Source of the DNA: an uncultured Gammaproteobacteria bacterium | GTDB taxonomy: Bacteria; Pseudomonadota; Gammaproteobacteria; GCA-002705445; GCA-002716945 | Reading direction: 5' to 3' | Assembly: GCA_905479195.1 (NCBI GenBank) | Contig: CAJQLO010000001.1 | Span: forward strand, 368,694 to 432,693 | DNA length: 64,000 bases | Shown: positions 1 through 27,350 of the stretch, piece by piece | How the letters are laid out: each line of letters starts with the position of its first letter | Position numbering within the stretch: the stretch's first letter is position 1 | Translations under genes and position numbers: made by a program | Notes under the pieces: generated by a model | What the model was told of the DNA's origin: nothing | The model's input: only the letters and a program-made list of their open reading frames with translations | Databases searched by the model: none

Positions 1-98
1 CTATTTACAATCACTAAATATAAGTTACTATATAAGAACAATATATTGATATATAACATTAATATATCAGTAAATACTAATAAAGAGGAGATAATGAT

Positions 99-371
99 AT
101 GGGATTTCTATTCGGTAAAACAGCTATGGGTACTTATGTGGTCGTGGCGTTCTGGGTAGCCTGTTACTACTTCTTCAGCGGTATGTTTCCAATGTGGCAT
201 TTTGCTGCTGGATCAATGCCTGGGTTAGCTGGTTGGCCTGTAGCACTATTAATAGGTTTTCTATTAATTGTTGCAAATATGATAAGTGTATACTTATTCA
301 TTAAGGTTGCTGGTAATCGACCATGGGAGTGGTTTGAAGATGGAGTCTACGGACCAGGAGATGAGGGGTAA
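99..371 (+). CDS. small hypothetical membrane protein (90 aa, two predicted TM helices, Trp/His-rich)
   Basis: A strong Shine-Dalgarno (AAGAGGAG) sits 8 nt upstream of the ATG, after an AT-rich non-coding leader. The protein has hydrophobic stretches VVVAFWVACYYFF and VALLIGFLLIVANMISVYLF. Codon usage is GC-richer than the bulk, like the neighbouring fadL-like/mtoX genes. I recognise no family. Confidence 0.45.
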   Translation: MGFLFGKTAMGTYVVVAFWVACYYFFSGMFPMWHFAAGSMPGLAGWPVALLIGFLLIVANMISVYLFIKVAGNRPWEWFEDGVYGPGDEG

Positions 372-2104: not shown

Positions 2105-2136
2105 AGAGGGTCACTTGCTTCGGTAGGTGGCCCTCT
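2105..2136 (+). other. intergenic hairpin (10-bp stem AGAGGGTCAC / GTGGCCCTCT with one G-U) between the fadL-like gene and mtoX; there is no U-run, so it may be an RNA-processing or stability element rather than a terminator
   Basis: Inverted repeat read directly from the sequence. Confidence 0.3.
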
Positions 2137-2169: not shown

Positions 2170-3540
2170 ATGAAAATAAGAAAACTTATGTCAACCGTAT
2201 ACGGTATGTTGATGTCAAGCTTTCTTGCTTTAGTGCTAGTCCCAACACATGTATTCTCTGATGAGACATGCATGTCACCATATATGGCTAAGATCGTGGG
2301 TCAAGAAGACTACGTCTATGTATGGACTTTAGGACAAGTAGGGGTAGGGGATGAACAAGATAAACTGGTAACAGTTGCTGTTAACCCTGCGTCGCCACAC
2401 TATGGCAATGTAATCGGACATACTTCTGTTGGTGGTCGTAATGAAGCACATCATTCTGGTTTTACAGATGATAGGCATTATTTATGGGCAGCTACATTAG
2501 ATACTGGAAAAATATTTATTTTTGATGTTCACACGAACCCATCTAAACCTAAACTTCATAAAGTTATAACTGACTTTACGAAAGCTAGTGGTGGTATCGT
2601 TGGACCACATACAACATATGCATTACCAGGAAGAATGATGATTTCTGGTCTTTCTAACAACCAAGACTTTGGTGGTAGAACAGCGCTTGTAGAATATACA
2701 AACGATGGTACATATGTAGCTACTTATGACATGCCAACTGACGGTAATTTAAACGGTGCTGTGAAAACAGGACAATTTGCTGACGGTTATGGTTATGACA
2801 TTCGTGCATTACCACGTAGAAATGTAATGATTACATCCTCATTTACTGGATGGAATAACTACATGATGAACCTTGGTAAATTAATGGGCGATGCAGATGC
2901 TATGGGACGATTTGGTAATACAGTCGTTGTTTGGGATCTTCATACTCGTAAACCAAAGAAAGTATTTGACGTACCAGGTGCACCTCTAGAAATTAGATGC
3001 GCATGGGGTTCATCAAACAACTATTGTTTCACAACAACAGCGCTTACTTCTCAAATATGGCTTATCTATGAAAAAGATAACGAATGGCATGCTGAGTCTG
3101 TAGGTACTATTGGTGATCCATCTAAAATTCCACTACCTGTTGATATTTCAATCACAGCTGATGATAAACATCTATGGGTAAACACTTGGAATGATGGAAT
3201 GACAAGAATATTTGATATCTCTGACCCACACAATGCTGTGGAAGTTAAAGCTCATAAAATTGGCGACCAAGTAAACATGCTATCTCAAAGCTGGGATGGA
3301 AATCGTATTTACTTCACAACTTCACTATTATCTAATTGGGATAAAGGTGATGTGCCAGATGTTGAGGGTCCACCACAATTTTTCAAAGCGTATGATCAAA
3401 AGGATAATGATTTAATTCATAAATTCACAATTGATTTCGCTGCAGAAAAACTAGGTATGCCTCATCAAATGAGATTCGGAGCATATTCGTTATATTCGAA
3501 AACAGCAGATAATAAAAATTTAGCAGAACTTAATCGCTAA
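2170..3540 (+). CDS. mtoX: SBP56-family selenium-binding protein / copper-dependent methanethiol oxidase, periplasmic (456 aa)
   Basis: Clear collinearity with SELENBP1/SBP56. LVTVAVNPASPHYGNVIGH...EAHHSGF matches LATVDVDPKSPQYCQVIHR...ELHHSGW. GKIFIFDVHTNPSKPKLHKVI matches [21 protein letters not shown]. There is a C-terminal RIYFTTSLLSNWDKG block. An N-terminal signal peptide and a good RBS (AGGAG) are present. Confidence 0.85.
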   Translation: MKIRKLMSTVYGMLMSSFLALVLVPTHVFSDETCMSPYMAKIVGQEDYVYVWTLGQVGVGDEQDKLVTVAVNPASPHYGNVIGHTSVGGRNEAHHSGFTDDRHYLWAATLDTGKIFIFDVHTNPSKPKLHKVITDFTKASGGIVGPHTTYALPGRMMISGLSNNQDFGGRTALVEYTNDGTYVATYDMPTDGNLNGAVKTGQFADGYGYDIRALPRRNVMITSSFTGWNNYMMNLGKLMGDADAMGRFGNTVVVWDLHTRKPKKVFDVPGAPLEIRCAWGSSNNYCFTTTALTSQIWLIYEKDNEWHAESVGTIGDPSKIPLPVDISITADDKHLWVNTWNDGMTRIFDISDPHNAVEVKAHKIGDQVNMLSQSWDGNRIYFTTSLLSNWDKGDVPDVEGPPQFFKAYDQKDNDLIHKFTIDFAAEKLGMPHQMRFGAYSLYSKTADNKNLAELNR

Positions 3541-3604
3541 ATTGTTGTCATAGTTATTAGACACCCTCATTGGTGGTAAATAACGTAAAATGGCTGTAAA
3601 CACT

Positions 3605-3638
3605 AGGTCGCTTACTTTGCTAAGCGGCCTTTTTTTTT
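3605..3638 (+). terminator. rho-independent terminator after mtoX
   Basis: Stem AGGTCGCTTA, loop CTTTGC, stem TAAGCGGCCT, then a run of nine T (followed by an A-run, so possibly bidirectional). Confidence 0.7.
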
Positions 3639-3692
3639 GGTAAAAAAAACTCTAAAAATTTACAATTAGTTGATTTGTGGTATGATTTTGAT

Positions 3693-5675
3693 ATGGAGAA
3701 ATTAAGGATATATTTACTACTTTTAGTAGTGTTTTTCATCAACCCGAGTTACGCACAAGAACAGAGTTATACATCGACGGTATTAGCACCTGGTTATAAC
3801 CAGCTTACCTTTGACGCACCTGTTCCTGGCTCATATGTAATACCGAGCTATATGCCTGCTTCTAATGGTGATGTAATAGATGTTGATGGCCTTACTAAGT
3901 CACTCCACGATATATATGATGATAAGATTGTACTATTGAATTTCATGTACAGTACTTGTACTGATGTTAATGGCTGCCCATTAGCAACAGCAGTGTTTCA
4001 TAAAATTAAAAATATACTTGATAAAGACCCTGTTATTGGAAAACAAGTAAGCATGATTAGCTTGAGCTTTGATCCTGAAAATGATTCACCTGATGTAATG
4101 AAACTCTATGGAGATGGAACAGATTCTGGCACAGTCGATTGGAAATTTTTAACCACTAACTCAATGAATGATTTGGACCCTATACTCAACAAGTATAGCC
4201 AGCGTATAATTAAAGAATATGATGAGAAAGGAAATTATATTGGTTCTATATCGCATATTCTCAGAGTGTTTCTGATTGATAAAGATAAGAATATAAGAAG
4301 TATTTACAGTGTTTCTTTTTTACATTCTGATGTTTTGATAAATGATATAAAAACACTTTTGCATCCCGAATCTCAAAACGGAACAATGGTAGTTGCTTCT
4401 ACTGTAAATGTTGTCCCATCCGGATCATCTCTTGCAAGGCCAGGTGATGCTAAAGAAGGTTATGAGAGCGGTGATTATGTTACAGATGCTCAGTCACTAG
4501 TAAGAACTGGTGTGGCAACAGATTTATATAAAATCGCTAATTCTCCAATACTGGGGCTGCCTGAATTAAAGATGAAAGAGGGTACTGACCTAACTAGAGA
4601 GAAAATTGCTTTAGGAAGAAAAATGTTTTTTGATAGAAGATTGTCTCACACAGATACAATTTCATGTGCAATATGTCATGTACCAGAAATGGGATTTGCT
4701 CATAATGAGCTTGCAACAGCCGTTGGTACCGAAGGAAGGTCTAATATAAGAAATGCGCCAACTATTTTAAACTCAGCATTATTAACACGTCTATTTCATG
4801 ATGGAAGAGAACACTCTTTAGAGAATCAAGTTTGGGGTCCTTTACTTTCGCATAAGGAAATGGCGAATCCTGCACCTGGATACCTAATTAAAAAGATTAA
4901 AAATATTCCAGACTATGATAATTTATTTGAAGAAGCATATAACACTGGTCCGTCTATTGATACAATCAGCAAAGCATTCGCTGCCTATCAGTATACGCTT
5001 CTAAGTGGCAATTCAGACTTTGATCGCTGGTATTATGGTGGTGAAAGAAATGCTATTTCTAATAGTGCTAAAAAAGGTTTTAAATTGTTTACTGGAAAAG
5101 CTGCATGTATTACATGCCATGTAATTGGGGATGATTATGCTTTATTTACAGATGAAAAACTGCATAACACAGGCATGGGTTTTAAAGCATCTATGCATGT
5201 AGAACCGCCTATGAAGAAAGTTACTTTAGTGCCAGGATTAACCATTGATATTGATACATCTTCCTATAGAGATAATGTGGCCTTTAAAGATGAGATTGCG
5301 CCAAATGATTTAGGTTTATATACAGTAACGCAAGATCCATATGATAGGTGGAAATTTAGAACAGCGAGTTTGCGTAACGTAGAGATTACCGGGCCATACA
5401 TGCATAATGGTGCATTACAGAATTTAAAAGATGTTGTGGAATTTTATAATAAAGGCGGGATTAAAGAATCTGGCAAGATGAAAAATGAGATGCTAAGTCC
5501 TTTAATGTTCCCTTTAAATTTATCTGAAAATGAGATGAATAATATTGTTGATTTCCTTAAAACTTTAACAGGTTCAAATGTTAATGAGCTTATCTTGGAT
5601 GCTAAGGCTGCACCTATTGGTGAGATATCACTAAATGATCCAAACTGGTTTCATGAAAATAAACCAAAATACTAA
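3693..5675 (+). CDS. fusion protein: N-terminal Sco1/SenC-like copper chaperone domain plus C-terminal MauG/di-haem cytochrome c peroxidase domain (about 660 aa; the start could be the upstream ATG at 3675)
   Basis: A signal peptide starts at MEKLRIYLLLLVVFFINPSYA. Residues ~80-230 carry the Sco1 pattern (LLNFMYSTCTDVNGCP...ISLSFDPENDSPDVMKLYG...HILRVFLIDKDKNIRSIY). The C-terminal half has two CxxCH haem motifs in CCP/MauG context (LGRKMFFDRRLSHTDTISCAICH... and GFKLFTGKAACITCH...YMHNGAL). Sco1/SenC and MauG genes follow mtoX in Hyphomicrobium as separate genes. Confidence 0.75.
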   Translation: MEKLRIYLLLLVVFFINPSYAQEQSYTSTVLAPGYNQLTFDAPVPGSYVIPSYMPASNGDVIDVDGLTKSLHDIYDDKIVLLNFMYSTCTDVNGCPLATAVFHKIKNILDKDPVIGKQVSMISLSFDPENDSPDVMKLYGDGTDSGTVDWKFLTTNSMNDLDPILNKYSQRIIKEYDEKGNYIGSISHILRVFLIDKDKNIRSIYSVSFLHSDVLINDIKTLLHPESQNGTMVVASTVNVVPSGSSLARPGDAKEGYESGDYVTDAQSLVRTGVATDLYKIANSPILGLPELKMKEGTDLTREKIALGRKMFFDRRLSHTDTISCAICHVPEMGFAHNELATAVGTEGRSNIRNAPTILNSALLTRLFHDGREHSLENQVWGPLLSHKEMANPAPGYLIKKIKNIPDYDNLFEEAYNTGPSIDTISKAFAAYQYTLLSGNSDFDRWYYGGERNAISNSAKKGFKLFTGKAACITCHVIGDDYALFTDEKLHNTGMGFKASMHVEPPMKKVTLVPGLTIDIDTSSYRDNVAFKDEIAPNDLGLYTVTQDPYDRWKFRTASLRNVEITGPYMHNGALQNLKDVVEFYNKGGIKESGKMKNEMLSPLMFPLNLSENEMNNIVDFLKTLTGSNVNELILDAKAAPIGEISLNDPNWFHENKPKY

Positions 5676-5681
5676 GGTTAT

Positions 5682-6203
5682 ATGAAAAAATTATTATCGA
5701 TATTTGTTTTACTGCCTACGCTTTTTTTTACATATAATTTAAATGCATCTGGCTACTTAATGGACCCTATGCCTAGCCATGAAAGAGCTCCAGAATTTAG
5801 TTTGATAGGCATGGATGAAAAAGTCCATACGTTAAAAAGCTTAGAAGGAAAATTCTTGTTAGTAAATTTTTGGGCTACTTGGTGTAATCCTTGTAAAGCT
5901 GAGATGCCTACCTTAGAAGCTATACACAAAAGATTTGATAATGAAAAATTCACTGTTATAGGAATTCATGTTGGACCAGGACCTGAAAATATTCGAAATT
6001 ATTTAGATATAAGCCCTGTGTCTTTTCCAATTTTTATTGATATGGATTTAGAGTATGACTGGGGAGTTCCTGGATTGCCGACAACATTTTTGATTAGCCC
6101 AGAAGGTAACATGTTATATAGAGCAGTAGGGAAAAGAGATTTTTCTTCTCCAGATATGGAATCATTTTTTATTAAGTTAGTAGATGAACACTTTGGAAAA
6201 TAA
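5682..6203 (+). CDS. periplasmic TlpA/ResA-family thiol:disulfide oxidoreductase (thioredoxin fold, 173 aa)
   Basis: Signal peptide plus the WATWCNPC active-site motif (a WCxxC thioredoxin motif in TlpA context). Separated by 6 nt from the upstream gene. Confidence 0.8.
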   Translation: MKKLLSIFVLLPTLFFTYNLNASGYLMDPMPSHERAPEFSLIGMDEKVHTLKSLEGKFLLVNFWATWCNPCKAEMPTLEAIHKRFDNEKFTVIGIHVGPGPENIRNYLDISPVSFPIFIDMDLEYDWGVPGLPTTFLISPEGNMLYRAVGKRDFSSPDMESFFIKLVDEHFGK

Positions 6204-6207
6204 TACT

Positions 6208-7005
6208 TTATAGTTTAAATAAAAAAACTTCTGAAAGATTATTACTATTTGTATTCCCATAATATCTTATTAAATTTTTATTTTCTAAAAATATTTTTTT
6301 ACTGATTACATTTGATATTTCTTTAAAGTAAAATTTTGTAAAATTATATTCAGCATCATTAGATCTGGCGTACTCTTTAACTACTTTCTTGTCTTTTGTA
6401 AAAATAGTTCCACGCTTTATGCCTTCAGCAAATATTTTACCTATCTTTCCCTTTATGATAATTGTCCCAGATAGCATATCATTACAAGCATAATCACCTA
6501 TATTACCCTCTATAATTACATTACCTCTCCGCATTCTCTCAATGGAATTATTTCCAACATTACCTTTTACATATAAGAAACCATCAACTATACCAACATT
6601 TCCATGATTAGTTTTCCCACCTGTATAGTCACCAGAGTTTCCATATATAAATATAGAGCCTCCTTTAATTCCAGATGCTGCATAATCTAGTGCATTACCA
6701 TATAATATAAGTTTTCCAGAAAGCATTTGTTCGCCAAATGAATAACCAACATTTCCATGAACGGTAATATTAATATTATTTAACTCTTTGCCGATATTAT
6801 CCATTAAATCAACTGAAGATTGGATAATAATGTTTTTTATATCATTACCCTTTATGCTGAAAAGCTCTTTAACTTTAAACTGTTTATTTCCATAAGATAT
6901 AATCTGAGATGAAAGCCTAGATATATCTTTATAAGAATTAGATAAGAATGACATATCTATCCTATATTTTATTTTCTTCTTTAGTTTTAGTATCACTGGA
7001 TTCAT
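6208..7005 (-). CDS. fhcC: formyltransferase/hydrolase complex subunit C (FwdC/FhcC-like beta-helix protein)
   Basis: Repeated GN(V/I)G..G beta-helix motifs (HGNVGYSFG, YGNALDYAASG, YGNSGDYTGG, KGNVGNN, EGNIGDYAC) typical of FwdC. 4-nt ATGA overlap with fhcD. Confidence 0.75.
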   Translation of the reverse strand: MNPVILKLKKKIKYRIDMSFLSNSYKDISRLSSQIISYGNKQFKVKELFSIKGNDIKNIIIQSSVDLMDNIGKELNNINITVHGNVGYSFGEQMLSGKLILYGNALDYAASGIKGGSIFIYGNSGDYTGGKTNHGNVGIVDGFLYVKGNVGNNSIERMRRGNVIIEGNIGDYACNDMLSGTIIIKGKIGKIFAEGIKRGTIFTKDKKVVKEYARSNDAEYNFTKFYFKEISNVISKKIFLENKNLIRYYGNTNSNNLSEVFLFKL

Positions 7006-7898
7006 TTCATGACTTTCCTTAAATGGAAATGATATTGCCCTAATTTACCACCATAATTTCCTGCAGATATGGCAACTATATCTTTTTTTATTTTCATTTT
7101 AGAAATACTTTGTATCGAAGTTTTTATTGCCTCATTGATATCATCAAATGTCAGTCCATTGATAACTATTTCCATCACACAATTTACATTAGCTGGTAGA
7201 GTACTCTTTGTAATACTCTTTAGTGTTGGACAAAAAGCGTCATTAGTAGATGCTATTAAAGCCTTGTATTTTGAACCAACTTTTGATCCAGACCTCACAA
7301 CCCCGCCAGGAAAAGGAGTTATAATATTTGGCTGATTTTTGATTGAATTTATTGCTGTCTCACAGGCAGACAAGCATGATTTTCTATTAGTACTCAATAC
7401 TAAAAAATTACCACCACCTATTGCTGGTACACGTGCAGTTGATTCTTCACAAAGAAATTCTCCATCCATGACTGGTATACGCCAAAATCTTCTGTCTTGT
7501 ATTTTTTTTGATATTTGATGGCCATCACCAAAGTATCTTAAGTTTTTACCTAAAGGAATTACATCTTCTCCGATCATCCCAGAAAATATAGCGGTTGTTG
7601 GGCAAGTGAGAATACACTGACCAACCCTGACCTCTAATTGCTTTTCTAGCTGACTTCTAGACATTGAAAATAGTAAGATTGAATAGCCTGGCCTGTTATC
7701 AGGTGTTTCTGACGATTTTAATTGTTTTTCGATGCCAGCTTCTATGCCGCATGCAATAACTGATGTAGCAAATCCAGTAAAAGAGTCACAGGCATGTTTT
7801 GCCCATTTTAAATTATCTGCTGTTACGATTATACGACTGGCTTTCATATTAAAAGCTTCGGCAAACGTATTATCTATTTTTATACCATTATAAATCAT
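7002..7898 (-). CDS. fhcD: formylmethanofuran:tetrahydromethanopterin formyltransferase (Ftr/FhcD)
   Basis: N-terminus MIYNGIKIDNTFAEAFNMKASRIIVTA matches the Ftr N-terminus (xINGVEIEDTFAEAFxMxGTRVLITA). Length 298 aa. Embedded in the fhc operon. Confidence 0.85.
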   Translation of the reverse strand: MIYNGIKIDNTFAEAFNMKASRIIVTADNLKWAKHACDSFTGFATSVIACGIEAGIEKQLKSSETPDNRPGYSILLFSMSRSQLEKQLEVRVGQCILTCPTTAIFSGMIGEDVIPLGKNLRYFGDGHQISKKIQDRRFWRIPVMDGEFLCEESTARVPAIGGGNFLVLSTNRKSCLSACETAINSIKNQPNIITPFPGGVVRSGSKVGSKYKALIASTNDAFCPTLKSITKSTLPANVNCVMEIVINGLTFDDINEAIKTSIQSISKMKIKKDIVAISAGNYGGKLGQYHFHLRKVMK

Positions 7899-9553
7899 TG
7901 CTTTCTTTTATATTTGCAATCATTAACATAAACAGGGCTGCCTACCAGGCTATTCATTTCATCATCGCTTAATATATAGTTATCTAATTTCATTGTATGA
8001 TATTTTTCAAAAAACTTACCTAAATCTTTTTCAATTGATTTATCATAATCTGGCTTAACAGTATGGGTTTTGCCCCAAACATATTCTTTTATTTTTCCAT
8101 TTTCTACAACTATTTTTCCATCTTTAATAACTAGAGATGGATGAGCAAACATCTCTTCTATATCTTTTTTATTTTTATCATAAACGGTTATGTCTGCATC
8201 AGATCCCTCAGATAGATTACCTTTCTCTTTTAACCCTAAAATTTTTGCGGGCGCTGATCTTGTCATGATGGAAATTTCGTTTAATGTATATTCTCTCTTA
8301 AGGGTGTGAAGAATAGTATGATTAAGAATTTCTTTTGGTAGTTGATTTAAAATATCATTACGAAAAGTTTTATCCATTAATAATTTAATCAAATGAGGAT
8401 ACGAGGTAAATGGTGCCCCATTAGGATGATCTGTAGTTAAAAAAACTTTCCAAGGATCTTCGGCTAATAAAAATATTTCTAAACCTATAGCCCATTGAAG
8501 AGCATTTACAAAACTTTTATCTTTATATTTAAAAGGAACTACGCCGCACCCTGCGTCACATTCTATGTCCATACACATCCATTTATTTGGATGAGCATGA
8601 TTATGGTTTCTATATTGAGACATACTATCACCAGACATAGTTACAGTTTGTCCAAACATTATTTGTCCTACATCACAAGTTAGATTCTCTATCTTATTTA
8701 AGTAGTTTGAAATTTCTACTGCTGCTGAAGAAAAACCCTTATCTCCATTATTGCCATAACTTTGAAATTGTATATGAGTTAAGTGAATTGGTAATCCATT
8801 CGCAGCTTTTATAGTTTCTATTGTCGATAGAAAATTTCCAGGAATACCTAAGTTACTGCAATGTACGTGTAATGGGTGAGGAACTCCCAAATCATATATT
8901 GCTCTTGTGAGCTTCTCCACTATTTCTCTTGGTGTTATACCATAGTATTTAGATTTCTCATCAACATTTAAGGCTCTTTGATTAAACTTAAATGCATTAA
9001 TGCCACCAGGATTAACAACTTTTATTCCCAAGGATTGTGTTGCACTTAAAATAAAAGCAACATAATCATTTATTGTTGATTGACTAGATTTCTTCCTTAG
9101 CAAATCTAAAAAGTAATCATCATTTCCTAGTAAAGCGTAACCGCCTTTATCAATAAATGGAATATCTGACATCTCTGCATGAGCTTGCCTTGCATTTATA
9201 GGTAGTAGAGCTGGTTCAAAACAAGTTGTATAACCCATTTCTATATACTTTAATCCAGTTTTAAGAGTAGATGGGGCAATAATAGCCGAAGAATCATATC
9301 CGGGTTCTTTTTCGTTATGAAATTCTTCCAGCATTAATCTTGCAATGTTAACCTTTCCTCCACCAATATGAGTATGAAGATCAATAGCTCCTGGCATTAT
9401 TATTTTATCTGAGCAATTTATGATTTTATCAACCTTAGACCTAACATTTTTCTTATCAATAATTTTTCCATCTTGAATAAAAATATCTTTTTTTACATTA
9501 GATATTTTGTTATGAGGGTCGTATACATTTCCAGATTTTAATTGTGTAATCAA
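7895..9553 (-). CDS. fhcA: formylmethanofuran dehydrogenase subunit A homologue (amidohydrolase superfamily; FhcA)
   Basis: 552 aa with an amidohydrolase metal-binding signature (PGAIDLHTHIGGG). Position between fhcB and fhcD. Confidence 0.8.
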   Translation of the reverse strand: MITQLKSGNVYDPHNKISNVKKDIFIQDGKIIDKKNVRSKVDKIINCSDKIIMPGAIDLHTHIGGGKVNIARLMLEEFHNEKEPGYDSSAIIAPSTLKTGLKYIEMGYTTCFEPALLPINARQAHAEMSDIPFIDKGGYALLGNDDYFLDLLRKKSSQSTINDYVAFILSATQSLGIKVVNPGGINAFKFNQRALNVDEKSKYYGITPREIVEKLTRAIYDLGVPHPLHVHCSNLGIPGNFLSTIETIKAANGLPIHLTHIQFQSYGNNGDKGFSSAAVEISNYLNKIENLTCDVGQIMFGQTVTMSGDSMSQYRNHNHAHPNKWMCMDIECDAGCGVVPFKYKDKSFVNALQWAIGLEIFLLAEDPWKVFLTTDHPNGAPFTSYPHLIKLLMDKTFRNDILNQLPKEILNHTILHTLKREYTLNEISIMTRSAPAKILGLKEKGNLSEGSDADITVYDKNKKDIEEMFAHPSLVIKDGKIVVENGKIKEYVWGKTHTVKPDYDKSIEKDLGKFFEKYHTMKLDNYILSDDEMNSLVGSPVYVNDCKYKRKQ

Positions 9554-9562
9554 GATTTCTTC

Positions 9563-10813
9563 CTATGCTAAGTTATCTAATATATTTTGCGTAGACGGTA
9601 ATTTAATATCTCTAATTTTTTTTAATGCGACAGAGACCACTTTATCAGTTCTAAACATTATACCTTCATAGTCAATTCCAGGTATACCTACAGGTATAAA
9701 AATATCAGGTGTCGAAGTAAAAGTAGTATTTGGATGACCTAAAACTATATTGGTAATATCGCTATTAATCTTTAATTTCCCAGAATTAATAGTTGAAACA
9801 TGAATTACCACATCCACATTTTTTTCATCTATTAATTTTTGGCTATTGAATGCATTACGGTCATGTTTAAAAGTCCCGTCCATATGTTTTATGCTAGATG
9901 GAAATCCAGTCATCCATGTTAATGCTTGCGAAGAAGTTTCGTCAGCGAGAATTCCTGATATTGGCATACATGCCGCTCTAGATGATACGTTAAGATCAAC
10001 AATATACTTACAAATAGCAGCAATTATTTTTTTTGGGTTAAGAGTTTTGATGAAATCTGAAGCAGTCCATGTTGCGACTATATATTTGGATTTATTAAGA
10101 ATATTTTTAATCTTAATAAGCTCGCTTTTTTTCAGTCCTTTTAATAACTTTAAGTCATCAGTAGCAAGTAATTTTAAAAAATCACCAACTAGATTTAAGT
10201 CTAGCTTGATGTTTGTGATATTACATTTTCCTTTCCCTTTAATATTTTTAACAATCTTTGCGGAAAAATTACCAATCAATATAATCTCTTTTTTGCTTGT
10301 AGGGAATAAGCTATTTTTGGGAGTTAATACTTTATCGATTAATCTTGGTGTTTTAGTCAAAACTTCATTACCAAATATAATAATGGCATCAGCCCGATTT
10401 TTAGTTTCAGTCAATGAGGTAGCCATATACCCAGTTCTTTGAACAACCCCAATATTTTGATATAAAAATTTAGAATTAACATGATCAACTATACAGTTTC
10501 GTTGTGATGCAAAACTTAATATTGATCTTAGTCCGGCTAATTCTACCCCATGATTTAAAATTAATGTTTCATTATGCCCTTTAATAAGATTTGAAATTTT
10601 TTTTAATGCTTCTGACAGCTTAACTACTTTTTTACCTACCATAGGCATGACTATACTTTTTGTATTTAGGTTATAAGATTCAATTTTTTTAGCACAAACA
10701 GTATTTTTTTGGTCAACCTTATATTGGTCATTTGTCGTTGTTACACTTATATCATCACAATGCATAGAGCAGAAAGGGCATGTTAAGTTTTTAATATTAT
10801 TTTGGCTAGTCAT
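9563..10813 (-). CDS. fhcB: formylmethanofuran dehydrogenase subunit B homologue (FhcB)
   Basis: The N-terminal LTCPFCSMHCDD...C motif aligns with the FwdB VVCPFCGTLCDD Fe-S motif, and a TKNRADAIIIFG block matches FwdB VKNRADVVVYWG. 416 aa. Confidence 0.8.
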   Translation of the reverse strand: MTSQNNIKNLTCPFCSMHCDDISVTTTNDQYKVDQKNTVCAKKIESYNLNTKSIVMPMVGKKVVKLSEALKKISNLIKGHNETLILNHGVELAGLRSILSFASQRNCIVDHVNSKFLYQNIGVVQRTGYMATSLTETKNRADAIIIFGNEVLTKTPRLIDKVLTPKNSLFPTSKKEIILIGNFSAKIVKNIKGKGKCNITNIKLDLNLVGDFLKLLATDDLKLLKGLKKSELIKIKNILNKSKYIVATWTASDFIKTLNPKKIIAAICKYIVDLNVSSRAACMPISGILADETSSQALTWMTGFPSSIKHMDGTFKHDRNAFNSQKLIDEKNVDVVIHVSTINSGKLKINSDITNIVLGHPNTTFTSTPDIFIPVGIPGIDYEGIMFRTDKVVSVALKKIRDIKLPSTQNILDNLA

Positions 10814-10896
10814 ATGGATATATTCTACATTATAACCATGTCACTTTGTACATAAAAGGTATAAAATATGGACGTGAATATACTATATCTATCACT

Positions 10897-11850
10897 ATGA
10901 ATAAGACTGTAAAAGAATTAAGTATCACTAGTCCATCCAGGTTACATCTTGGATTTTATGGTTTTGATGATAGCTATGGATATAAGTATGGGAGCATGGG
11001 ACTTGCAATTAATGCATATAAAACCTCTTTATCCATAAAAAAGTCAAAAATTTTTTCAAGCAATCTGCCAAAAAAGTTTACAACTCCAATTTTAAAATAT
11101 TTGAAGCTAAAAAAAGTTAGTAGTAATTTTGAAATTAACTTATTAAGTCAGCCGCCTAGCCATATAGGCTTAGGGTCTGGTTCACAACTATCATTATGTT
11201 TAGGAAAATCAATATTAATGCACCTTGGTATCAAGGCAAGTATCAGTGATATTGCTCGCATTTATGATAGAGGGGAAAGATCAGGCACAGGTATAAGAAT
11301 ATTTGAGAGAGGAGGTTTTGTTGTCGATGCTTGTAAAAAAGCAAACATGTTACCCGAGACAATGTTTAACTCTAAATTTCCTAGTAAATGGAAAATCATA
11401 CTTATTAATGATAATCAGCTAAAGGGAGCTTCTGGTGAGAAAGAAGTTAAATTTTTTAATAAGAATATTAAATTATCAAGACAGTATAAGGCCGAATTAT
11501 CACATATTGCCCTCAGAGGAATATTACCTTCAGTAATTTATAAGGATTTTGATAATTTTTCAAAAAATATTTCAGAATTTCAAAGGATCACATCTTTATT
11601 CTATAAGGATAAGCAGAAAGGTATTTTTTTAAGCCCTGATATCTCTAACATCATGGAATATATAGGAAATTATGATAATTTAGGGATGGGACAGAGCTCA
11701 TGGGGGCCAATGTCTTATATATTCGTTGAGTCTAGTTTGCATGCTAAAGAGCTTATAAGTATTATCCAAAATAAATTTAATGTGTATAATAACCTAACAT
11801 TTAAAATTGCAAGCTCATGGAATTCGGGCTATAAAATTAGTTACAAATAA
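10897..11850 (+). CDS. mptG: GHMP-kinase-fold protein, probable beta-ribofuranosylaminobenzene 5'-phosphate synthase (MptG-like; H4MPT biosynthesis)
   Basis: Start taken at MNKTVKEL (the ORF track extends to 10846). There is a GHMP-like Gly-rich loop (HIGLGSGSQLSL). The position is divergent from fhc, as for orf4/mptG in methylotroph H4MPT clusters. Confidence 0.55.
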   Translation: MNKTVKELSITSPSRLHLGFYGFDDSYGYKYGSMGLAINAYKTSLSIKKSKIFSSNLPKKFTTPILKYLKLKKVSSNFEINLLSQPPSHIGLGSGSQLSLCLGKSILMHLGIKASISDIARIYDRGERSGTGIRIFERGGFVVDACKKANMLPETMFNSKFPSKWKIILINDNQLKGASGEKEVKFFNKNIKLSRQYKAELSHIALRGILPSVIYKDFDNFSKNISEFQRITSLFYKDKQKGIFLSPDISNIMEYIGNYDNLGMGQSSWGPMSYIFVESSLHAKELISIIQNKFNVYNNLTFKIASSWNSGYKISYK

Positions 11851-11871
11851 ACAAGTAATGGAGATCTGATC

Positions 11872-12762
11872 ATGGAAAAACCTTTTTTATTACATATGAT
11901 AACACCTGAAAAGAACATCAGCCCTTTTGATGCGAATATGGCTTTTGACGCAGGTTGGGACTCTGTAATCCCATATACCAATATAGGAATGGATGAAATG
12001 CAAGGAATCGTTCAGGACACAATCTTTTCAAGATCCCCGTCTGCATTAAAGAGAACTGGAATTTTTATTGGTGGCAGAGATACACATATGGCGATGGATA
12101 TGATTGAAGAAGCAAAAAAGCATATGGTCCCACCATTTGAAGTACCTGTTTTTGCTGATCCTAGTGGAGCATTTACAACTGCAGCAGGAATGGTTGCCAT
12201 AACTGAAAAAGCTCTTAAAGACAAATTCTCTGAAAAATTTACAGGTAAGAAAATAGTAATCTTAGGTGGCACAGGACCTGTAGGTGTTGCCTCAGCTGTT
12301 ATCAGTGCTAAAGCAGGAAATAGTGTGTTATTAGTAGGAAGGAGTTTAGATAAAGCAGAGAGCATAGCAAAGATATGCAATGAGAAATACGGCTCAAAAT
12401 CTGTTACAGGAGCAGTTGACTCTGAGAAGAAATCATTTTTAATAGATGCTGATATTGTTTTTAATACTGGAGCAGCAGGCATTCAGTTGATGGATGACGA
12501 ATTAATCAAGAACGCAGTAAACTTAAAGATATGTGCAGATGTGAATGCTGTTCCTCCGGCAGGAATATCAGGAATAGATGCGATGGATAATGTTGTTCCA
12601 ATGAAGAACTCTAGCTCTGGCTGTTTTGGAATAGGAGCTTTAGCGATAGGAAACATTAAATATAAGTCTCAACATGATTGTCTAAAGCTAATGTATAGTT
12701 GCGATAAGCCGGTATACTTACATTTTGAACAAGCGTTTGAGTTTGCACAAAAAAATGTCTGA
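11872..12762 (+). CDS. mtdB: NAD(P)-dependent methylene-tetrahydromethanopterin dehydrogenase (MtdA/MtdB family)
   Basis: 296 aa. A Rossmann GxGxxG motif (ILGGTGPVGVASA) sits mid-protein and the N-terminal domain is typical of MtdA/B. Context is mptG upstream and mch downstream. Confidence 0.65.
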   Translation: MEKPFLLHMITPEKNISPFDANMAFDAGWDSVIPYTNIGMDEMQGIVQDTIFSRSPSALKRTGIFIGGRDTHMAMDMIEEAKKHMVPPFEVPVFADPSGAFTTAAGMVAITEKALKDKFSEKFTGKKIVILGGTGPVGVASAVISAKAGNSVLLVGRSLDKAESIAKICNEKYGSKSVTGAVDSEKKSFLIDADIVFNTGAAGIQLMDDELIKNAVNLKICADVNAVPPAGISGIDAMDNVVPMKNSSSGCFGIGALAIGNIKYKSQHDCLKLMYSCDKPVYLHFEQAFEFAQKNV

Positions 12763-13826
12763 TGATTAATGCTGTTGTTGTTATAAATTCAGACACAACA
12801 TATTTAGAAGAAAAATTTACATCCCTGGGGATCAAGGTTTTTGCTTTTGACCAATATTGTCATAATAACCTAGATAAAATTCAAGATATTACATATCTAG
12901 AATCATTTATAAACAATATCCTTATTGATTATCAGAATGTTGGCCTATTATATGGGTCTGGACTAGAAGACAAGCCTGAAATTTATGATTGCTTAAGACG
13001 AAAGTTAAGTATATTGGGTAATGATCCAAGAATTATTTCAAAGTGTAATGATTTAAGGCTGCTAACTAACACATTAGATGAGTGCAATCTCAAGTTTCCA
13101 GAATATGTAAACAATACTATAGGAATAAAAAAAAGATACCTATCAAAACCATTCAATAGTTCTGGAGGATATAATATAAACTTCAGTGAAAAATATAAAA
13201 AAAATCACTACCTTCAGGAGTATCTTGAAGGAGAAACATATTCAATATCATTCTTCAAGCATAAAGACAATTTTATTTTCTTAGGATTTAATAAGTTACT
13301 ACATCTTCGAAATTTTGACCCACATCCTTTTATACATGCAGGAGCATTAACGACTAATAAATTTTTAGAATCTACTAATATAATTAATTCATTTAAAAAA
13401 TTATCAGAAAAACTTTCAATGAATGGTTATAATAGTATTGATTTTAAAATACTAAATGAAGAAGTTTTTGTACTTGATATCAATCCGAGAATTACATCTA
13501 CATTCAAAATTTATAACGATACTTATAATAATGATTTATTGCATCTTATAATAAACCCTGGCCTTGATAAAAAACTAGAAAGTCATAATAATAATAAGTA
13601 TGCTTTCGTCCATATGTTTGTAAAAGAAGAGTATAAGTTTAAGAATTTTTTTATGGATGATCCTGAGTTTGTAAATCTCCCTAATGAAGGACAACATGTT
13701 GGGAAAAATCAGCCTTTATTATCAATATATCTAAATTCATTTTCAAATTTAGATTTAATGACAAGATTAAAAGAAAAAATTTCAATTACAACAAATCTTT
13801 ATAACTGCTATGATATAGATATCTAA
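12762..13826 (+). CDS. ATP-grasp family ligase (H4MPT/methylofuran biosynthesis, orf5/orf7/orf17-like)
   Basis: 354 aa with ATP-grasp architecture. Start overlaps the mtdB stop (ATGA). One of three ATP-grasp genes in the island. Confidence 0.5.
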   Translation: MINAVVVINSDTTYLEEKFTSLGIKVFAFDQYCHNNLDKIQDITYLESFINNILIDYQNVGLLYGSGLEDKPEIYDCLRRKLSILGNDPRIISKCNDLRLLTNTLDECNLKFPEYVNNTIGIKKRYLSKPFNSSGGYNINFSEKYKKNHYLQEYLEGETYSISFFKHKDNFIFLGFNKLLHLRNFDPHPFIHAGALTTNKFLESTNIINSFKKLSEKLSMNGYNSIDFKILNEEVFVLDINPRITSTFKIYNDTYNNDLLHLIINPGLDKKLESHNNNKYAFVHMFVKEEYKFKNFFMDDPEFVNLPNEGQHVGKNQPLLSIYLNSFSNLDLMTRLKEKISITTNLYNCYDIDI

Positions 13827-13829
13827 ATT

Positions 13830-14798
13830 ATGACTGAAAAAATAAGTATAAATAAGGTTGTTAAGCCACTAGTTGAAAAGCTCATTGAGACTGCAGATCA
13901 ATTAAATATCGGTGTCCATACTTCAGAAGGTGGAGCCAAGATTATTGATGCCGGCATTAATTATACTGGTTGTTTGGAGTCTGGACGGTTGATTACAGAA
14001 ATCTGTATGGGTGGGTTAGGTAGAGTATCCTTATCAATGACCTCTAATACCCCAAATTGGCCATTATCTATTCATGTGCATAGTACTAATCCAGTATTAA
14101 GTTGCTTGGCTAGTCAATATGCTGGCTGGAATCTTTCTTTTGTTAAGGAAGAAGATAACTTTAATGCACTTGGATCAGGTCCATGTAGAGCACTGGCACT
14201 AAAAGAAGATTTATTTAAAGATTTGGATTATTCAGATAAATTCTATTCAACAGTAGTTGTGTTAGAAGTTGATAAAAACCCACCACAAGAAATCATAGAT
14301 AAGATAACAAATGATTGTGGAATTAGTGAAAAGAATTTAACTGTTATTTTAACACCTACGAGGTCATTATCTGGCTCTGTGCAGGTTGTCGGAAGGGTTT
14401 TAGAAGTTGGTATGCATAAATTACATGAAATTGGATTCCCTTTAAACAAGGTCGTTGATGGATTTGGTTCAGCCCCAGTGCCACCACCCGCACCTGATTT
14501 TTTGATAGGAATGGGAAGAACTAATGATGCAATATTGTATGGAGGAATGGTCCATCTTTTTGTAGACGTGGATGATGATGAAGCATATGAGCTTGCCAAG
14601 AGACTACCTAGCTCAACATCGTCTGATTATGGAAAGCCATTTGCAGATGTGTTCAAAGAATACAAGTATGATTTTTATAAGATCGACAAGCTACTTTTTA
14701 GTCCGGCAAAAGTTATAGTCACAACAATTAAAACAGGAAAAACTTTTACAGAAGGATCTATAGATTTAGAATTAGTTGATAAATCATTTAATAAATGA
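13830..14798 (+). CDS. mch: methenyltetrahydromethanopterin cyclohydrolase
   Basis: 322 aa, the size and sequence character of Mch. Located in the H4MPT cluster between ATP-grasp genes. Confidence 0.8.
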   Translation: MTEKISINKVVKPLVEKLIETADQLNIGVHTSEGGAKIIDAGINYTGCLESGRLITEICMGGLGRVSLSMTSNTPNWPLSIHVHSTNPVLSCLASQYAGWNLSFVKEEDNFNALGSGPCRALALKEDLFKDLDYSDKFYSTVVVLEVDKNPPQEIIDKITNDCGISEKNLTVILTPTRSLSGSVQVVGRVLEVGMHKLHEIGFPLNKVVDGFGSAPVPPPAPDFLIGMGRTNDAILYGGMVHLFVDVDDDEAYELAKRLPSSTSSDYGKPFADVFKEYKYDFYKIDKLLFSPAKVIVTTIKTGKTFTEGSIDLELVDKSFNK

Positions 14799-15706
14799 GA
14801 AAAGTTCTTATCCTAACTGATCAAAAAGGTTGGCACTATAAGCAGCTAAAAAAATCTTTTGAAAATAGAGATATTTCTGTTGAGTCATCTAATTTAGATG
14901 ATCTCTCGATAGCTATTCAAGGTAAAAAAAATCAAATTATAAAAAATAATGGTGAGTTACTAACTAATATCACGGATGTCTTTGTTCGTCATATTCCTGG
15001 AGGAACCTTAGAAGAGGTGATTATCAATCTTAATATACTTAAGGTTTTTGAATCGCATAATATTAATGTAATGAATACATCTACAAATATTGAAACAACA
15101 GTTGATAAATCACTTACGTCTATAAAGCTAATGGAATCTGGTATTTTGACTCCAGACACCTGGGTAGTGAGAGGTAGAAGTAATTGTAAAAAAATTGTGA
15201 AAGATCTCCTCCCTAAACATGCTTTAATATATAAACCTTTATTTGGTTCTCAGGGTGATAATATAGTAAAAATTACAGCAGTTTCGGATTTTGATAAAAT
15301 TGTAAATGAAAGCAATATTTTCTATATACAGGAATTTCTTGAAACAAAACCTTCTCATGATTATAGAGTCTTGATAGCAAAAAATAAAAATAAAAAAATG
15401 GTCTATACTATGATGAGATATAGTGATTCTTATATCAATAATATATCAAAAGGAGCTATGTGTGTTTCGGTAAAGGCTGACAAAGATATAATTGAGACTG
15501 CGCTTAAGGCAGCATCAGTTATCAATATTCCATTCTGTGGCGTTGATATTATCAAACATAATAACAAGAATTATGTGATTGAATTAAACAGTATACCTGC
15601 ATGGAAAGGTATGCAGACCACACTTGAAAATAATATATCCGATGAAATCATAAATATATTTATTGGAAATACGATAAACAAATCATTCTTATCTGTTCTT
15701 AAGTAA
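14795..15706 (+). CDS. RimK-like ATP-grasp ligase (MptN-like tetrahydromethanopterin:glutamate ligase candidate)
   Basis: 303 aa RimK-family pattern. ATGA overlap with mch. Confidence 0.6.
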   Translation: MRKVLILTDQKGWHYKQLKKSFENRDISVESSNLDDLSIAIQGKKNQIIKNNGELLTNITDVFVRHIPGGTLEEVIINLNILKVFESHNINVMNTSTNIETTVDKSLTSIKLMESGILTPDTWVVRGRSNCKKIVKDLLPKHALIYKPLFGSQGDNIVKITAVSDFDKIVNESNIFYIQEFLETKPSHDYRVLIAKNKNKKMVYTMMRYSDSYINNISKGAMCVSVKADKDIIETALKAASVINIPFCGVDIIKHNNKNYVIELNSIPAWKGMQTTLENNISDEIINIFIGNTINKSFLSVLK

Positions 15707-15711
15707 GCCAT

Positions 15712-16590
15712 ATGTTTGATAACTTAAAATATCCAATCCTCAATGAAGATTCCAAAGAGTCTGTGCTTCGCAATGCTTACTTATATGCATGCCATAAAGA
15801 TATTGAAGTAATTAAGCCTGGAAATGTAAATATAAACTCATCTCATCATGATACTACCGCTAGTGACTATCTTATTAGTTCAATTAATAGTGGATCCGAG
15901 TTATTTCATGAAGAATATAGTTTGGGCGACCGAATCTTGAAAGCTGTTATTGCTACGAGAAATGAAACTTTAACCAATACTAACTTAGGTATTATCATGT
16001 TATGTGCACCCATCATACATGCGTTGGTGGAGTATAAGGGCTCAGACTTGAGAGAAGCTATCATAAAGACGATTGATGGTGCCACTCTCGATGATACTAT
16101 AAAAATATGCAAGGCGATTAATATCTCAAGCCCAGGAGGACTAGGTGACGCATCTAAGTTTGATACTAAATCTTTGCCTAATGTAAAATTAAGAGAAATA
16201 ATGAGTTATTCAGCTGGATATGATCGTATTTCATATCAATATCATAATAATTTCAAGGATATCCTTGATTTTATTCTCCCAAGTCTTGATAAAAATATGG
16301 TCAAGTATAAATCTACTGACATTTCAATATCCGTAACATTTCTCGAAATCTTAAGTAAAATCCCTGATTCGCATATTTCGCGTAAATTAGGTGAAGAAAT
16401 AGCAAAAAAGACTAGCAATCATGCCAATGATTTGTTAAAAATACAAGACAAGGATTGTAGTGAGGATTATCTGGTCAAACAGCTAAATGATCTTGATTAT
16501 GAATATAAGAAAAAAGGAATTAATCCGGGGACTACCGCAGATTTATTAGTCGCAAGTTTGATGATCCATAGGATTTTCAAAAGCGCATAA
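15712..16590 (+). CDS. CitG/MdcB-like triphosphoribosyl-dephospho-CoA synthase family protein (orf9-like, H4MPT cofactor biosynthesis)
   Basis: 292 aa. The family assignment comes from the pattern and from the conserved position of orf9-like genes in H4MPT clusters. Confidence 0.5.
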   Translation: MFDNLKYPILNEDSKESVLRNAYLYACHKDIEVIKPGNVNINSSHHDTTASDYLISSINSGSELFHEEYSLGDRILKAVIATRNETLTNTNLGIIMLCAPIIHALVEYKGSDLREAIIKTIDGATLDDTIKICKAINISSPGGLGDASKFDTKSLPNVKLREIMSYSAGYDRISYQYHNNFKDILDFILPSLDKNMVKYKSTDISISVTFLEILSKIPDSHISRKLGEEIAKKTSNHANDLLKIQDKDCSEDYLVKQLNDLDYEYKKKGINPGTTADLLVASLMIHRIFKSA

Positions 16591-16629
16591 TTCACGTATG
16601 AACCATTTAATATAAACAAGGAGATAAAA

Positions 16630-17148
16630 ATGGCAGTAATTGATAAAGTATTGGTCGGTGAAGGTTTGGTTGTTGAAGAAGGCGGAGACAATGAAATTGC
16701 TCATATCGATTTAATCATGGGACCACGTGGTTCTGCTGTAGAAGATGCGTTTTGTAATACACTTTGTAATAACAAAGATGGATTTACTTCGCTATTAGCT
16801 GTATGTGCACCTAATCTACCAACTAAACCAGCTACAGTAATGTTTAATAAAGTTACTATTAAAGGTGCTAAACAAGCAGTTCAAATGTTTGGACCAGCTC
16901 AAAGAGCAGTAGCTATGGCTGTTACAGATTCTGTGAAAGACGGAACAATTCCAGCAGCTGAAGCAAATGATATTTTCGTTTGTGTAGGTGTTTTCATCCA
17001 TTGGGATGCTAATGACGATGTTAGAATTTATGACTACAACTATAAAGCTACAATGATGGCTATTAAAGCTGCAGTTGCTGGCACGCCAACAGCTGAAGAT
17101 GTTGTTGCAGCGGCAGCAGATTCTTCTCACCCATACTCACCTAAGTAG
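16630..17148 (+). CDS. fae: formaldehyde-activating enzyme (condenses formaldehyde with H4MPT)
   Basis: Near-collinear identity to Methylobacterium Fae ([64 protein letters not shown]). SD AAGGAGA is present. GC-richer, high-expression-like codon usage. Confidence 0.92.
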
Positions 17149-17165: not shown

Positions 17166-17864
17166 TTAACCAGCTCTATTTTTAGAGCTGGTTTTTTCTT
17201 TTTGGATCATATATTTTGTAATCTTATTCTGATGAATCATTGTTGAAACTAAAACTCCACTCGCACCAAAATGCTTTGCTCTTTTGATATCAAATATAGA
17301 TTTAATTCCACCAGCAATATAATAATCTTGGTTATTATTCCTAATAAATCTTCTAGCAAGTTTATAATTAATATTATTTTTTGAACCAACTTGAAGCAAG
17401 TCCATGAGTATAATTTTTGATGGGGATGCTTTTTGTTGTCTATATATAGGTTTCTCTCCTATATATTTTCCCATAAAATCAAATGAGCAGACACAATTAT
17501 TAAATTTATTTGATGAAAATTCATAGCCTTTTGATTTTTCACTGCAAAAAACAGGATAATAATTTCTATATTTCTTTTTTAATTTTATTTCTTTCAAACC
17601 AGAGTCAATCCAGAATTTAATTTTTGGAAATGAAGATAAGATATCATCATATATCTTCGGGTCTATGATGTTATGCATAATTGCATCTAAATCAGCAATG
17701 TATAATATCTTAGGAGAATACCTTTTTACAATTTGATCAATTATATCTCTTGGATCTGTACTATTGTATAATTTGTGGTTGATAGACTGATAATTATCTC
17801 TATCACCTTTAATTGCTCTAACCACTTGGTTATTAAGAATGTCTATAACAGGGATTATGTCCAT
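17166..17864 (-). CDS. HisA/HisF-like (beta/alpha)8-barrel protein of the H4MPT biosynthesis cluster
   Basis: N-terminus MDIIPVIDILNNQVVRAIKGD resembles HisA MIIPALDLIDGxVVRLxQGD. 232 aa. Confidence 0.5.
   Translation of the reverse strand: MDIIPVIDILNNQVVRAIKGDRDNYQSINHKLYNSTDPRDIIDQIVKRYSPKILYIADLDAIMHNIIDPKIYDDILSSFPKIKFWIDSGLKEIKLKKKYRNYYPVFCSEKSKGYEFSSNKFNNCVCSFDFMGKYIGEKPIYRQQKASPSKIILMDLLQVGSKNNINYKLARRFIRNNNQDYYIAGGIKSIFDIKRAKHFGASGVLVSTMIHQNKITKYMIQKEKTSSKNRAG
17169..17198 (+). terminator. rho-independent terminator after fae (perfect 9-bp stem ACCAGCTCT / AGAGCTGGT, then a T-run); it overlaps the last codons of the convergent minus-strand gene
   Basis: Inverted repeat plus TTTTTTCTTTTT, read directly from the sequence. 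Confidence 0.7.
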
Positions 17865-17867
17865 AGT

Positions 17868-21881: not shown

Positions 21882-21882
21882 G

Positions 21883-24361: not shown

Positions 24362-24362
24362 A

Positions 24363-27164: not shown

Positions 27165-27350
27165 ACTACTTTTTAATTATAAAATCACCATATCAAGATA
27201 AGCTCTTGTTAAATATAAGTATTTGATTAATATAGACTATTTTTAGTATATTCTATGTATTTATGAAGCTAAAGCCTTGCATACATCAATAAAAAGTCAT
27301 ATAGTGTTGATATATGGTAATTTATGTAAGATTGTGGGGAATAATGGTAA

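Follow-up and report, generated by a model that had tools for sequence, protein, structure and literature searches.

Formaldehyde-oxidation islands of the Methylobacterium extorquens type cluster fae, mtdB, mch and fhcABCD with genes for the biosynthesis of tetrahydromethanopterin (H4MPT) and methanofuran. For methanethiol oxidase (MTO), an operon of mtoX, SCO1 and mauG has been described, together with its fused form in Methylophaga and with the signal peptide and histidine ligands of the enzyme (Eyice et al. 2017, PMC5739008). Priest et al. reported a 'Thiotrichaceae' population of the GTDB genus GCA-2705445 in which genes for MTO and sulfur oxidation accompany a complete H4MPT pathway. They proposed methanethiol as its source of carbon, sulfur and energy, and every GCA-2705445 species representative had this gene set (bioRxiv 10.1101/2022.08.12.503524). 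For the order GCA-002705445, Francis et al. described 1.1-Mb genomes with complete H4MPT and no recognisable ribulose monophosphate (RuMP) or serine cycle, and its SBP56 protein in spring-bloom metaproteomes (PMC8371827). MtoX peptides were also abundant in productive Pacific surface water (Saunders et al., PMC9477243). A lifestyle based on methanethiol, combining MTO with H4MPT, has essentially been published, probably for the same bacterial group as the DNA studied here. This is a 64-kb stretch of an uncultured gammaproteobacterium, referred to throughout as the window, in which mtoX lies beside the genes of the formaldehyde-to-formate route.

We propose that this region is probably the centre of a gene block for C1 oxidation that lies on the chromosome and has been inherited vertically, in a marine gammaproteobacterium that oxidises sulfur and has a streamlined genome. 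In the proposed pathway, a strongly expressed unit of orf90, a channel gene and mtoX, with a conserved promoter-like site at one end and a conserved terminator at the other, would supply the outer membrane with a channel for hydrophobic solutes and the periplasm with the copper enzyme MtoX. A SCO1-MauG fusion protein and a TlpA-like protein, both weakly expressed, would mature MtoX by copper insertion and cofactor formation. MtoX would then convert methanethiol to formaldehyde, reduced sulfur and H2O2. The formaldehyde would enter the cytoplasm, be bound by Fae and be taken to formate by MtdB, Mch and FhcABCD, after which an NAD-dependent formate dehydrogenase (FDH), whose genes lie ~5 kb ahead of the window start, would release CO2. 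The sulfur would be passed to Sox, whose genes follow shortly after the right end of the window. Methanethiol use would probably be dissimilatory, for energy and sulfur. Substrate flux, expression level, compartments and taxon in this scheme are what we infer from the gene identities, locus anatomy, conservation and codon bias set out below.

The mtoX gene (2170..3540, + strand) encodes a protein of the SBP56 family. Its match to the equivalog model NF052453 scored 693.1 bits against a cutoff of 650, and that to Pfam SBP56 (PF05694) scored 161 bits. Residues H94, H95, H147 and H432 align with the conserved HH, H and H of structure 2ECE; in the MTO of Hyphomicrobium VS, His89/90/140/412 are the proposed copper ligands (PMC5739008). 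The N-terminus, MKIRKLMSTVYGMLMSSFLALVLVPTHVFS, resembles a signal peptide, as judged by eye. The protein is thus predicted to be a periplasmic, copper-dependent methanethiol oxidase. The preliminary description of this DNA listed H2S among the products, which needs correcting: some MTOs yield sulfane sulfur instead of H2S (PMC10936201). The exact MtoX sequence was found on 84 contigs, and its 90% cluster holds 1,677 members. A scan of species-representative genomes gave 80 mtoX loci (labelled L001 etc.), the nine closest of which come from single-amplified and metagenome-assembled genomes of uncultured marine Gammaproteobacteria with MtoX 83-88% identical.

The expected SCO1/SenC and MauG partners of MtoX are encoded directly downstream as a single gene. 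This SCO1/SenC-like and MauG-like di-haem fusion (3675..5675, +; Pfam SCO1-SenC, CCP_MauG and Cytochrom_C) has its likely start at 3693, gene callers on near-identical contigs beginning 18 nt later, and carries CxxCH motifs at residues 331 and 478. Maturation of MtoX is its likely role. In its SCO1-like domain a cysteine pair, C95-x5-C101, replaces the canonical CxxxC, while a separate SCO1 upstream (L081 5479-6036) carries the canonical CPDIC. The next gene, tlpA (5682..6203, +), was assigned by profile matches to a TlpA/ResA-like periplasmic thiol:disulfide oxidoreductase with a WCNPC motif. Signal-peptide-like N-termini are shared by the channel, MtoX, SCO1-MauG and TlpA.

Two genes precede mtoX: orf90 (99..371, +), the first gene of the unit, for a putative membrane protein of 90 aa with two hydrophobic segments, and a gene for an outer-membrane channel of 500 aa (576..2078, +). 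The channel protein itself gave no Pfam or NCBIfam match even at E<=10, nor did PDB sequence searches with it, as a single sequence or as a profile, return any match. Its homologues with 37-40% tblastn identity, encoded close to mtoX in L013 and L056, which represent two further orders, do match PF03349 (31.3 and 50.6 bits; gathering threshold 29.7), a 70%-identical homologue carries PF03349, and IMG names relatives 'long-chain fatty acid transport protein'. The NPA motif of FadL is present and invariant (N62-P63-A64), and the signal peptide is of Sec type. A Foldseek search with the AlphaFold model placed TodX, CymD and FadL in the top 19 PDB matches (E 1e-9 to 1e-6), though the model is of low confidence (pLDDT 49) and these fold matches count only as support. 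The protein is predicted to be a FadL/TodX-type channel for small hydrophobic solutes. The name 'fadL-like' given to it in the preliminary description was right, by way of homologues, NPA motif and fold rather than of any profile match of its own.

Within what is evidently a single species, the channel is 88-89% identical (window versus L082 10478-11980), whereas its neighbour proteins are mostly 94-100% identical. The differences fall in four patches, at residues ~101-122, 260-285, 370-395 and 450-480, which are probably surface loops under diversifying selection. The small protein encoded by orf90 is the most conserved of the locus, at 86-96% identity in relatives, and is clade-specific; a remote search among 1.84 billion representative proteins gave no homologue outside its own cluster.

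Codon usage was then considered. The preliminary description had noted GC-richer, CGT-containing codons in the channel gene, mtoX and fae, and had read them as a sign of high expression. GC content is indeed raised in the three genes (42.3%, 37.8% and 39.5%, respectively, versus 31% for the window), with the excess mainly at codon positions 1 and 2, so that GC-richness mostly reflects amino-acid composition. At the third position (GC3), where the window averages 0.214 (sd 0.037), values were 0.264, 0.241 and 0.192, the last, for fae, being below average. GC3 alone was rejected as a proxy for expression, since it mixes amino-acid effects with drift and points in the wrong direction for fae. A preference for C over T at two-fold pyrimidine-ending codons is the general direction of translational selection in bacteria, and forms the basis of Sharp's S. 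A Y-index, defined as C/(C+T) at Phe, Tyr, Ile, Asn, His and Asp codons, was used for 60 open reading frames (ORFs).

The Y-index of the whole window was 0.163. The five highest values belonged, in order, to the channel gene (0.46, p=1e-14), which has the strongest codon bias in the window, orf90 (0.41, p=0.005; 0.48-0.70 in relatives), mtoX (0.32, p=9e-6), fae (0.30, p=0.015; nominal, and not significant over 60 genes) and mtdB (0.29, p=0.006; nominal). After correction for 60 tests, only the channel gene and mtoX remained significant, while sco1-mauG, tlpA, fhc, mch, ftsZ and secA lay at background. The CGY share of Arg codons was elevated for the channel gene (5/9, p=0.003) and mtoX (6/15, p=0.009), and not for fae (1/3). 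GGT was likewise raised among Gly codons in the channel gene (46/71) and mtoX, whereas G-ending Lys, Glu and Gln codons were fewer, not more, in the channel gene, mtoX and fae. In nine related species the ranking orf90 > channel gene > mtoX > neighbours broadly holds, with few local exceptions. The pattern indicates strong translational selection on the channel gene and mtoX, a nominal signal in fae and mtdB, and none in fhc or mch. It supports high expression of the channel gene and mtoX, which would rank with the region's most highly expressed genes. Of the original codon observation, therefore, the raised GC stands for all three genes and the raised CGY for two, CGY and GC3 fail for fae, and the expression argument is carried for the channel gene and mtoX by the C-over-T test instead.

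The same data bear on whether the GC-richer left end, from orf90 to tlpA, might be a recent foreign island with its composition taken from a donor. GC falls from 0.43 to 0.33 over these five genes, all of which have GC3 above the window mean. In the single-cell genome of one relative (L001), the N-terminal part of an integrase (Arm-DNA-binding domain), joined in frame ahead of fdsBG (544-2766), lies a few kb upstream. However, the bias is codon-specific: C-over-T, CGY and GGT go up and G-ending codons go down, whereas a GC-rich foreign source should have pushed the last of these up, and sco1-mauG and tlpA, inside the supposed island, have a background Y-index. The block also occupies the same place in nine related species, and the window holds no tRNA gene. 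Horizontal acquisition was rejected on these grounds, and a foreign origin of the left end is highly improbable.

We then looked at the elements that would delimit the expressed unit. The short non-coding stretch at the start of the window, before orf90, holds a promoter-like site found by a consensus scan (4..31, +; TTTACA, 16 nt, TACTAT). Its TTTACA hexamer is invariant in eight aligned contigs, one near-identical to the window and seven from related species, and we regard the site as a putative promoter of the orf90 unit. The scan by itself was uninformative in so AT-rich a window, where it returned 59 sites against 57.6 expected. Between the channel gene and mtoX lies a 14-bp hairpin with a UUCG loop (2105..2136, +; -26.8 kcal/mol, z=-4.0), the stem of which shows compensating changes across species, by eye from the alignment. 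Because no T-run follows it, this hairpin is more likely to act as a stabiliser or attenuator than as a full terminator.

The situation after mtoX is different. A scan identified an intrinsic terminator with a 10-bp GC-rich stem and a nine-T run (3605..3640, +), which was kept in 9/9 relatives with compensatory changes in six pairs. Given a conserved terminator with compensatory changes in this position, the abundant transcript most likely ends at ~3640, with the maturation genes at lower expression. Upstream of the terminator, in the 3' untranslated region (3' UTR) of mtoX, an alignment of ten sequences (the window and nine related species representatives) showed a near-invariant element of about 50 nt (3547..3597, +), although the protein encoded by the next gene is merely 66-71% identical. 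The element forms a two-part hairpin and occurs as a single copy within the window. An Rfam scan of 1-27400 gave no match for it, RNase P RNA being the only hit. Its possible roles include that of a small RNA derived from the 3' UTR, or of a site for mRNA stability or regulation.

Formaldehyde made by MtoX would meet a complete H4MPT-linked route, with Fae, Mtd, Mch and FhcA/B/C/D all encoded in the window. The genes fhcC-fhcD-fhcA-fhcB for the formyltransferase/hydrolase complex occupy 6208..10813 on the - strand (TIGR03122, TIGR03119, TIGR03121 and TIGR03129). Matches for FhcC, FhcD and FhcA exceed their cutoffs, while FhcB falls below its own (193.7 versus 327.8); it is divergent, and its identity comes partly from its position. 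On the + strand, 10846..17148 carries genes for RFAP synthase, mtdB (11872-12762), an ATP-grasp protein, mch (13830-14798), RimK-like and CitG-like proteins, and fae (16630-17148). The divergent fhcB and RFAP-synthase genes are only 32 nt apart (10814-10845), so both promoters must overlap or sit inside coding sequence. Genes for the H4MPT and methanofuran cofactors follow at 17166..24965, comprising His_biosynth-like, ATP-grasp, hydantoinase_A-like, pabB, mfnB, DUF447, DUF6513/pterin-binding, flavoprotein and MobA-like genes. This layout bears out the earlier claim that a formaldehyde producer and the complete formaldehyde-to-formate route form one block, which here reaches to ~25 kb.

It had also been claimed that the mtoX operon ends 4 nt from the fhc operon. 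The stop codon of tlpA ends at 6203 and that of fhcC begins at 6208, so the gap is indeed 4 nt. Its importance was overstated, since the genes are convergent and a strong conserved terminator already follows mtoX. The median intergenic distance in the window is 3 nt, and all convergent pairs (6/6) are spaced at -17 to +17 nt. The abutment is therefore the norm for this genome, a by-product of compaction without mechanistic meaning. A single operon of mtoX and fhc would have both on one strand with no terminator between them; here the genes converge, so the mtoX-side genes and fhc are not co-transcribed, and the terminator at 3605-3640 intervenes. The clustering is one of functional neighbourhood rather than of co-transcription.

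As a comparison across relatives had been suggested for the junction, the mtoX loci of other genomes were examined. All nine of the closest loci keep orf90-channel-mtoX-sco1-mauG-tlpA, the convergent fhcCDAB, RFAP synthase and mtdB, as far as their contigs reach, and thus all close relatives keep the junction. The upstream stretch from FDH to the reductase is equally conserved in the clade, and the junction is part of this general synteny. Neither of the outcomes named beforehand as speaking against the idea, a lack of expression-linked bias or unlinked blocks in relatives, was found. In comparison with L001, the closest species representative, orf90 (96%), MtoX (88%) and the channel (87%) are far more conserved than FhcC (45%) and FhcB (47%), and across the locus the slowest-evolving proteins are orf90, MtoX and the channel (83-96%, versus 38-53% for FhcB, FhcC and RFAP synthase).

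Linkage of mtoX to C1 oxidation was also seen outside the clade. Loci L039, L051 and L063 carry, on one strand, folD, mtoX, SCO1 and MauG (unfused), tlpA, an ORF without assignment, an FmdD-like gene and fhcB-A-D-C; in L033, L040 and L049, fdsA and fdsBG for NAD-formate dehydrogenase are divergent from mtoX. Two other lineages thus place mtoX beside fhc or NAD-formate dehydrogenase independently. By rough estimate, well under one such linked lineage would be expected by chance in the sample. When the genes up to 7 kb from mtoX were clustered without bias, SCO1/MauG turned up in 77/80 loci and TlpA in 15/80, all others being lineage-specific. Linkage of mtoX to C1 oxidation is therefore a recurrent but minority pattern.

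Several observations weigh against a functional link and suit the alternative that the adjacency is incidental, kept by descent in a compact and rarely rearranged genome, with MtoX serving mainly to remove toxic methanethiol or to salvage its sulfur, and the H4MPT island dealing with formaldehyde of other origin. The convergent orientation precludes co-transcription, and a 4-nt gap is typical where all convergent gaps are tiny. Synteny in the clade spans the whole 21 kb per locus, well beyond the junction, which may simply be inherited. No fhc genes lie within 10 kb of mtoX in 68/80 loci, including those of Methylomonas and Methylococcaceae, so that most mtoX loci elsewhere have no C1 neighbours and linkage to fhc appears in only ~2 of the many mtoX-bearing lineages sampled. 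The fhc and mch genes show no codon bias, no ribosomal-protein genes with which to calibrate the codon index lie within 10 kb of the window ends, and formaldehyde may also arise from sources elsewhere in the genome. On the other side, mtoX stands beside fhc in a second lineage and beside FDH in a third, in different gene orders; FDH, mtoX, fhc and the H4MPT genes come together within ~30 kb; the formaldehyde made by MtoX needs removal, and the adjacent route is the only one seen; and the very high expression suggested by codon usage is ill-suited to minor scavenging. We consider incidental adjacency doubtful, and favour a functional C1-oxidation neighbourhood. The further claim that methanethiol is a major substrate fits the codon bias and the published metaproteomes of the clade to which the window probably belongs, and goes beyond what 64 kb can show.

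To place the block in its surroundings, the flanks were read from a metagenome contig 100% identical over the 3 kb compared, and from others carrying identical proteins. Upstream are fdsA and fdsBG (~5 kb from the window start), pterin carbinolamine dehydratase, the canonical SCO1 and an AlkB-like membrane oxygenase, then a ferredoxin of 59 aa, a GST-like protein and a BenC-like reductase. Downstream are a YeeE/YedE-like sulfur transporter, soxX-soxY-soxZ-soxA and TusA (L085 11393-17903; ~0.8-7.3 kb beyond the right end), and because these are encoded there, the gene content indicates that the organism oxidises reduced sulfur. Genes for the oxidation of methanethiol, formaldehyde and formate lie within ~30 kb, and those for sulfur oxidation ~70 kb from mtoX.

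The AlkB-like module (L081 6311-9839) lies directly upstream of the window start and of orf90. Its oxygenase, of the membrane di-iron type, has the motifs HELSH, HVYNHH, NYLEHYG and ADHH. With 85-91% identity among members of the clade, it equals MtoX in conservation. According to annotation only, photic-zone 'alkB' transcripts are highest in the order GCA-002705445 (PMC13488336). This raises the alternative that the channel and orf90 belong to an AlkB-like module for the uptake and hydroxylation of alkanes or fatty acids, and precede mtoX by chance. FadL-family channels are the usual route for uptake of hydrophobic substrates, the top folds were TodX, CymD and FadL, and the AlkB-like, ferredoxin and BenC-like reductase genes are the immediate neighbours. 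Nevertheless, no terminator-like site separates the channel gene from mtoX, only the hairpin without a T-run, whereas the conserved promoter-like site does separate orf90 from the reductase gene. FadL-like genes also lie near mtoX in L013 and L056, and in Methylophaga thiooxydans a FadL-like porin is co-induced with mtoX on dimethylsulfide (DMS) (PMC6548844). Chance placement before mtoX is, on this evidence, quite unlikely, and we retain orf90, the channel gene and mtoX as one unit.

The preliminary description had spoken of C1 units derived from methanethiol and DMS. The DMS part found no support inside the 64-kb window, which encodes no known DMS-to-methanethiol enzyme; a 2026 review lists DmoA as the sole enzyme for this step. 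The upstream flank offers a candidate. An oxygenase-reductase pair related to the AlkB-like one (30% and 44% identity, same His-box pattern) adjoins mtoX in L025 and L053, where its neighbours include genes for a BisC-family S/N-oxide reductase and a type III SQR-like protein; L025 (4949-9741) comes from an unrelated gammaproteobacterium of 5.8 Mb. Growth of Methylophaga thiooxydans on DMS induced a 'fatty acid desaturase', a flavin reductase and a FadL-like porin along with both mtoX genes, and the first enzyme of DMS breakdown in that organism is unknown (PMC6548844). It is conceivable, if on balance unlikely, that a conserved SCO1-AlkB-ferredoxin-GST-BenC-orf90-channel-MtoX module extends across the left boundary of the window, which would hold its downstream half, and in which the AlkB-like protein would be a thioether (DMS) monooxygenase and not an alkane hydroxylase. 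Its products would, speculatively, be methanethiol and formaldehyde. A literature search for a link of AlkB to DMS or methanethiol found none, and the AlkB-like neighbour is thus an unreported lead and a concrete candidate for a marine DMS-degrading enzyme. If true, it would be the missing first enzyme of marine DMS degradation, and the most transcribed 'alkB' of the photic ocean would have to be reinterpreted.

The window as a whole has 31.0% GC and a coding density of 95.6%. Its remainder is occupied by housekeeping genes, including the dcw cluster, secA, argJ, an RND efflux pump, aspS and nadA, and for this reason the region is regarded as core chromosome and not as a mobile element. A bacterial class A RNase P RNA lies at 26829-27165 (+; 294.8 bits). 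An FtsZ-family gene (29212-30381) stands between mraW and ftsI, with none between ftsA (41967-43217) and lpxC (43308-44225), and the dcw cluster showed no murC or ftsL ORF of at least 100 aa.

Methanethiol and DMS hold a central place in the turnover of sulfur and carbon in the sea. Should an uncultured group that is abundant and has streamlined genomes live largely by oxidising methanethiol, it would be a sink controlling the volatile sulfur that reaches the atmosphere.

Compared with the mtoX operons of Hyphomicrobium sp. VS and Ruegeria pomeroyi (PMC5739008), this locus likewise encodes an SBP56 MTO with a signal peptide and His ligands, and SCO1/SenC and MauG downstream. Here, however, SCO1 and MauG are fused, a TlpA-like gene comes after them, orf90 and a FadL-like channel come before mtoX, no IclR regulator is adjacent, and a strong terminator splits mtoX from its maturation genes. 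Methylophaga thiooxydans shares the fused SCO1-MauG, the complete H4MPT pathway and FDH (PMC5739008; PMC6548844), but its loci are described as separate and a RuMP cycle is present, whereas the genes here are contiguous, in a genome whose largest contig measures 870 kb; its desaturase and porin are likened to the genes here by description only. The papers on the order GCA-002705445 and the genus GCA-2705445 report the same small genomes with MTO, complete H4MPT and sulfur oxidation. The window probably belongs to this order, which its features fit circumstantially: low GC, the 870-kb contig, and the joint presence of H4MPT genes, SBP56, an alkB-like gene and sox. The papers give gene presence, while the present locus adds physical linkage, transcription-unit anatomy and codon bias, which are modest additions to a published idea. 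What sets this island apart from those of Methylobacterium extorquens is the gene for a primary C1-generating oxidase, mtoX, immediately at its flank, with FDH not far away.

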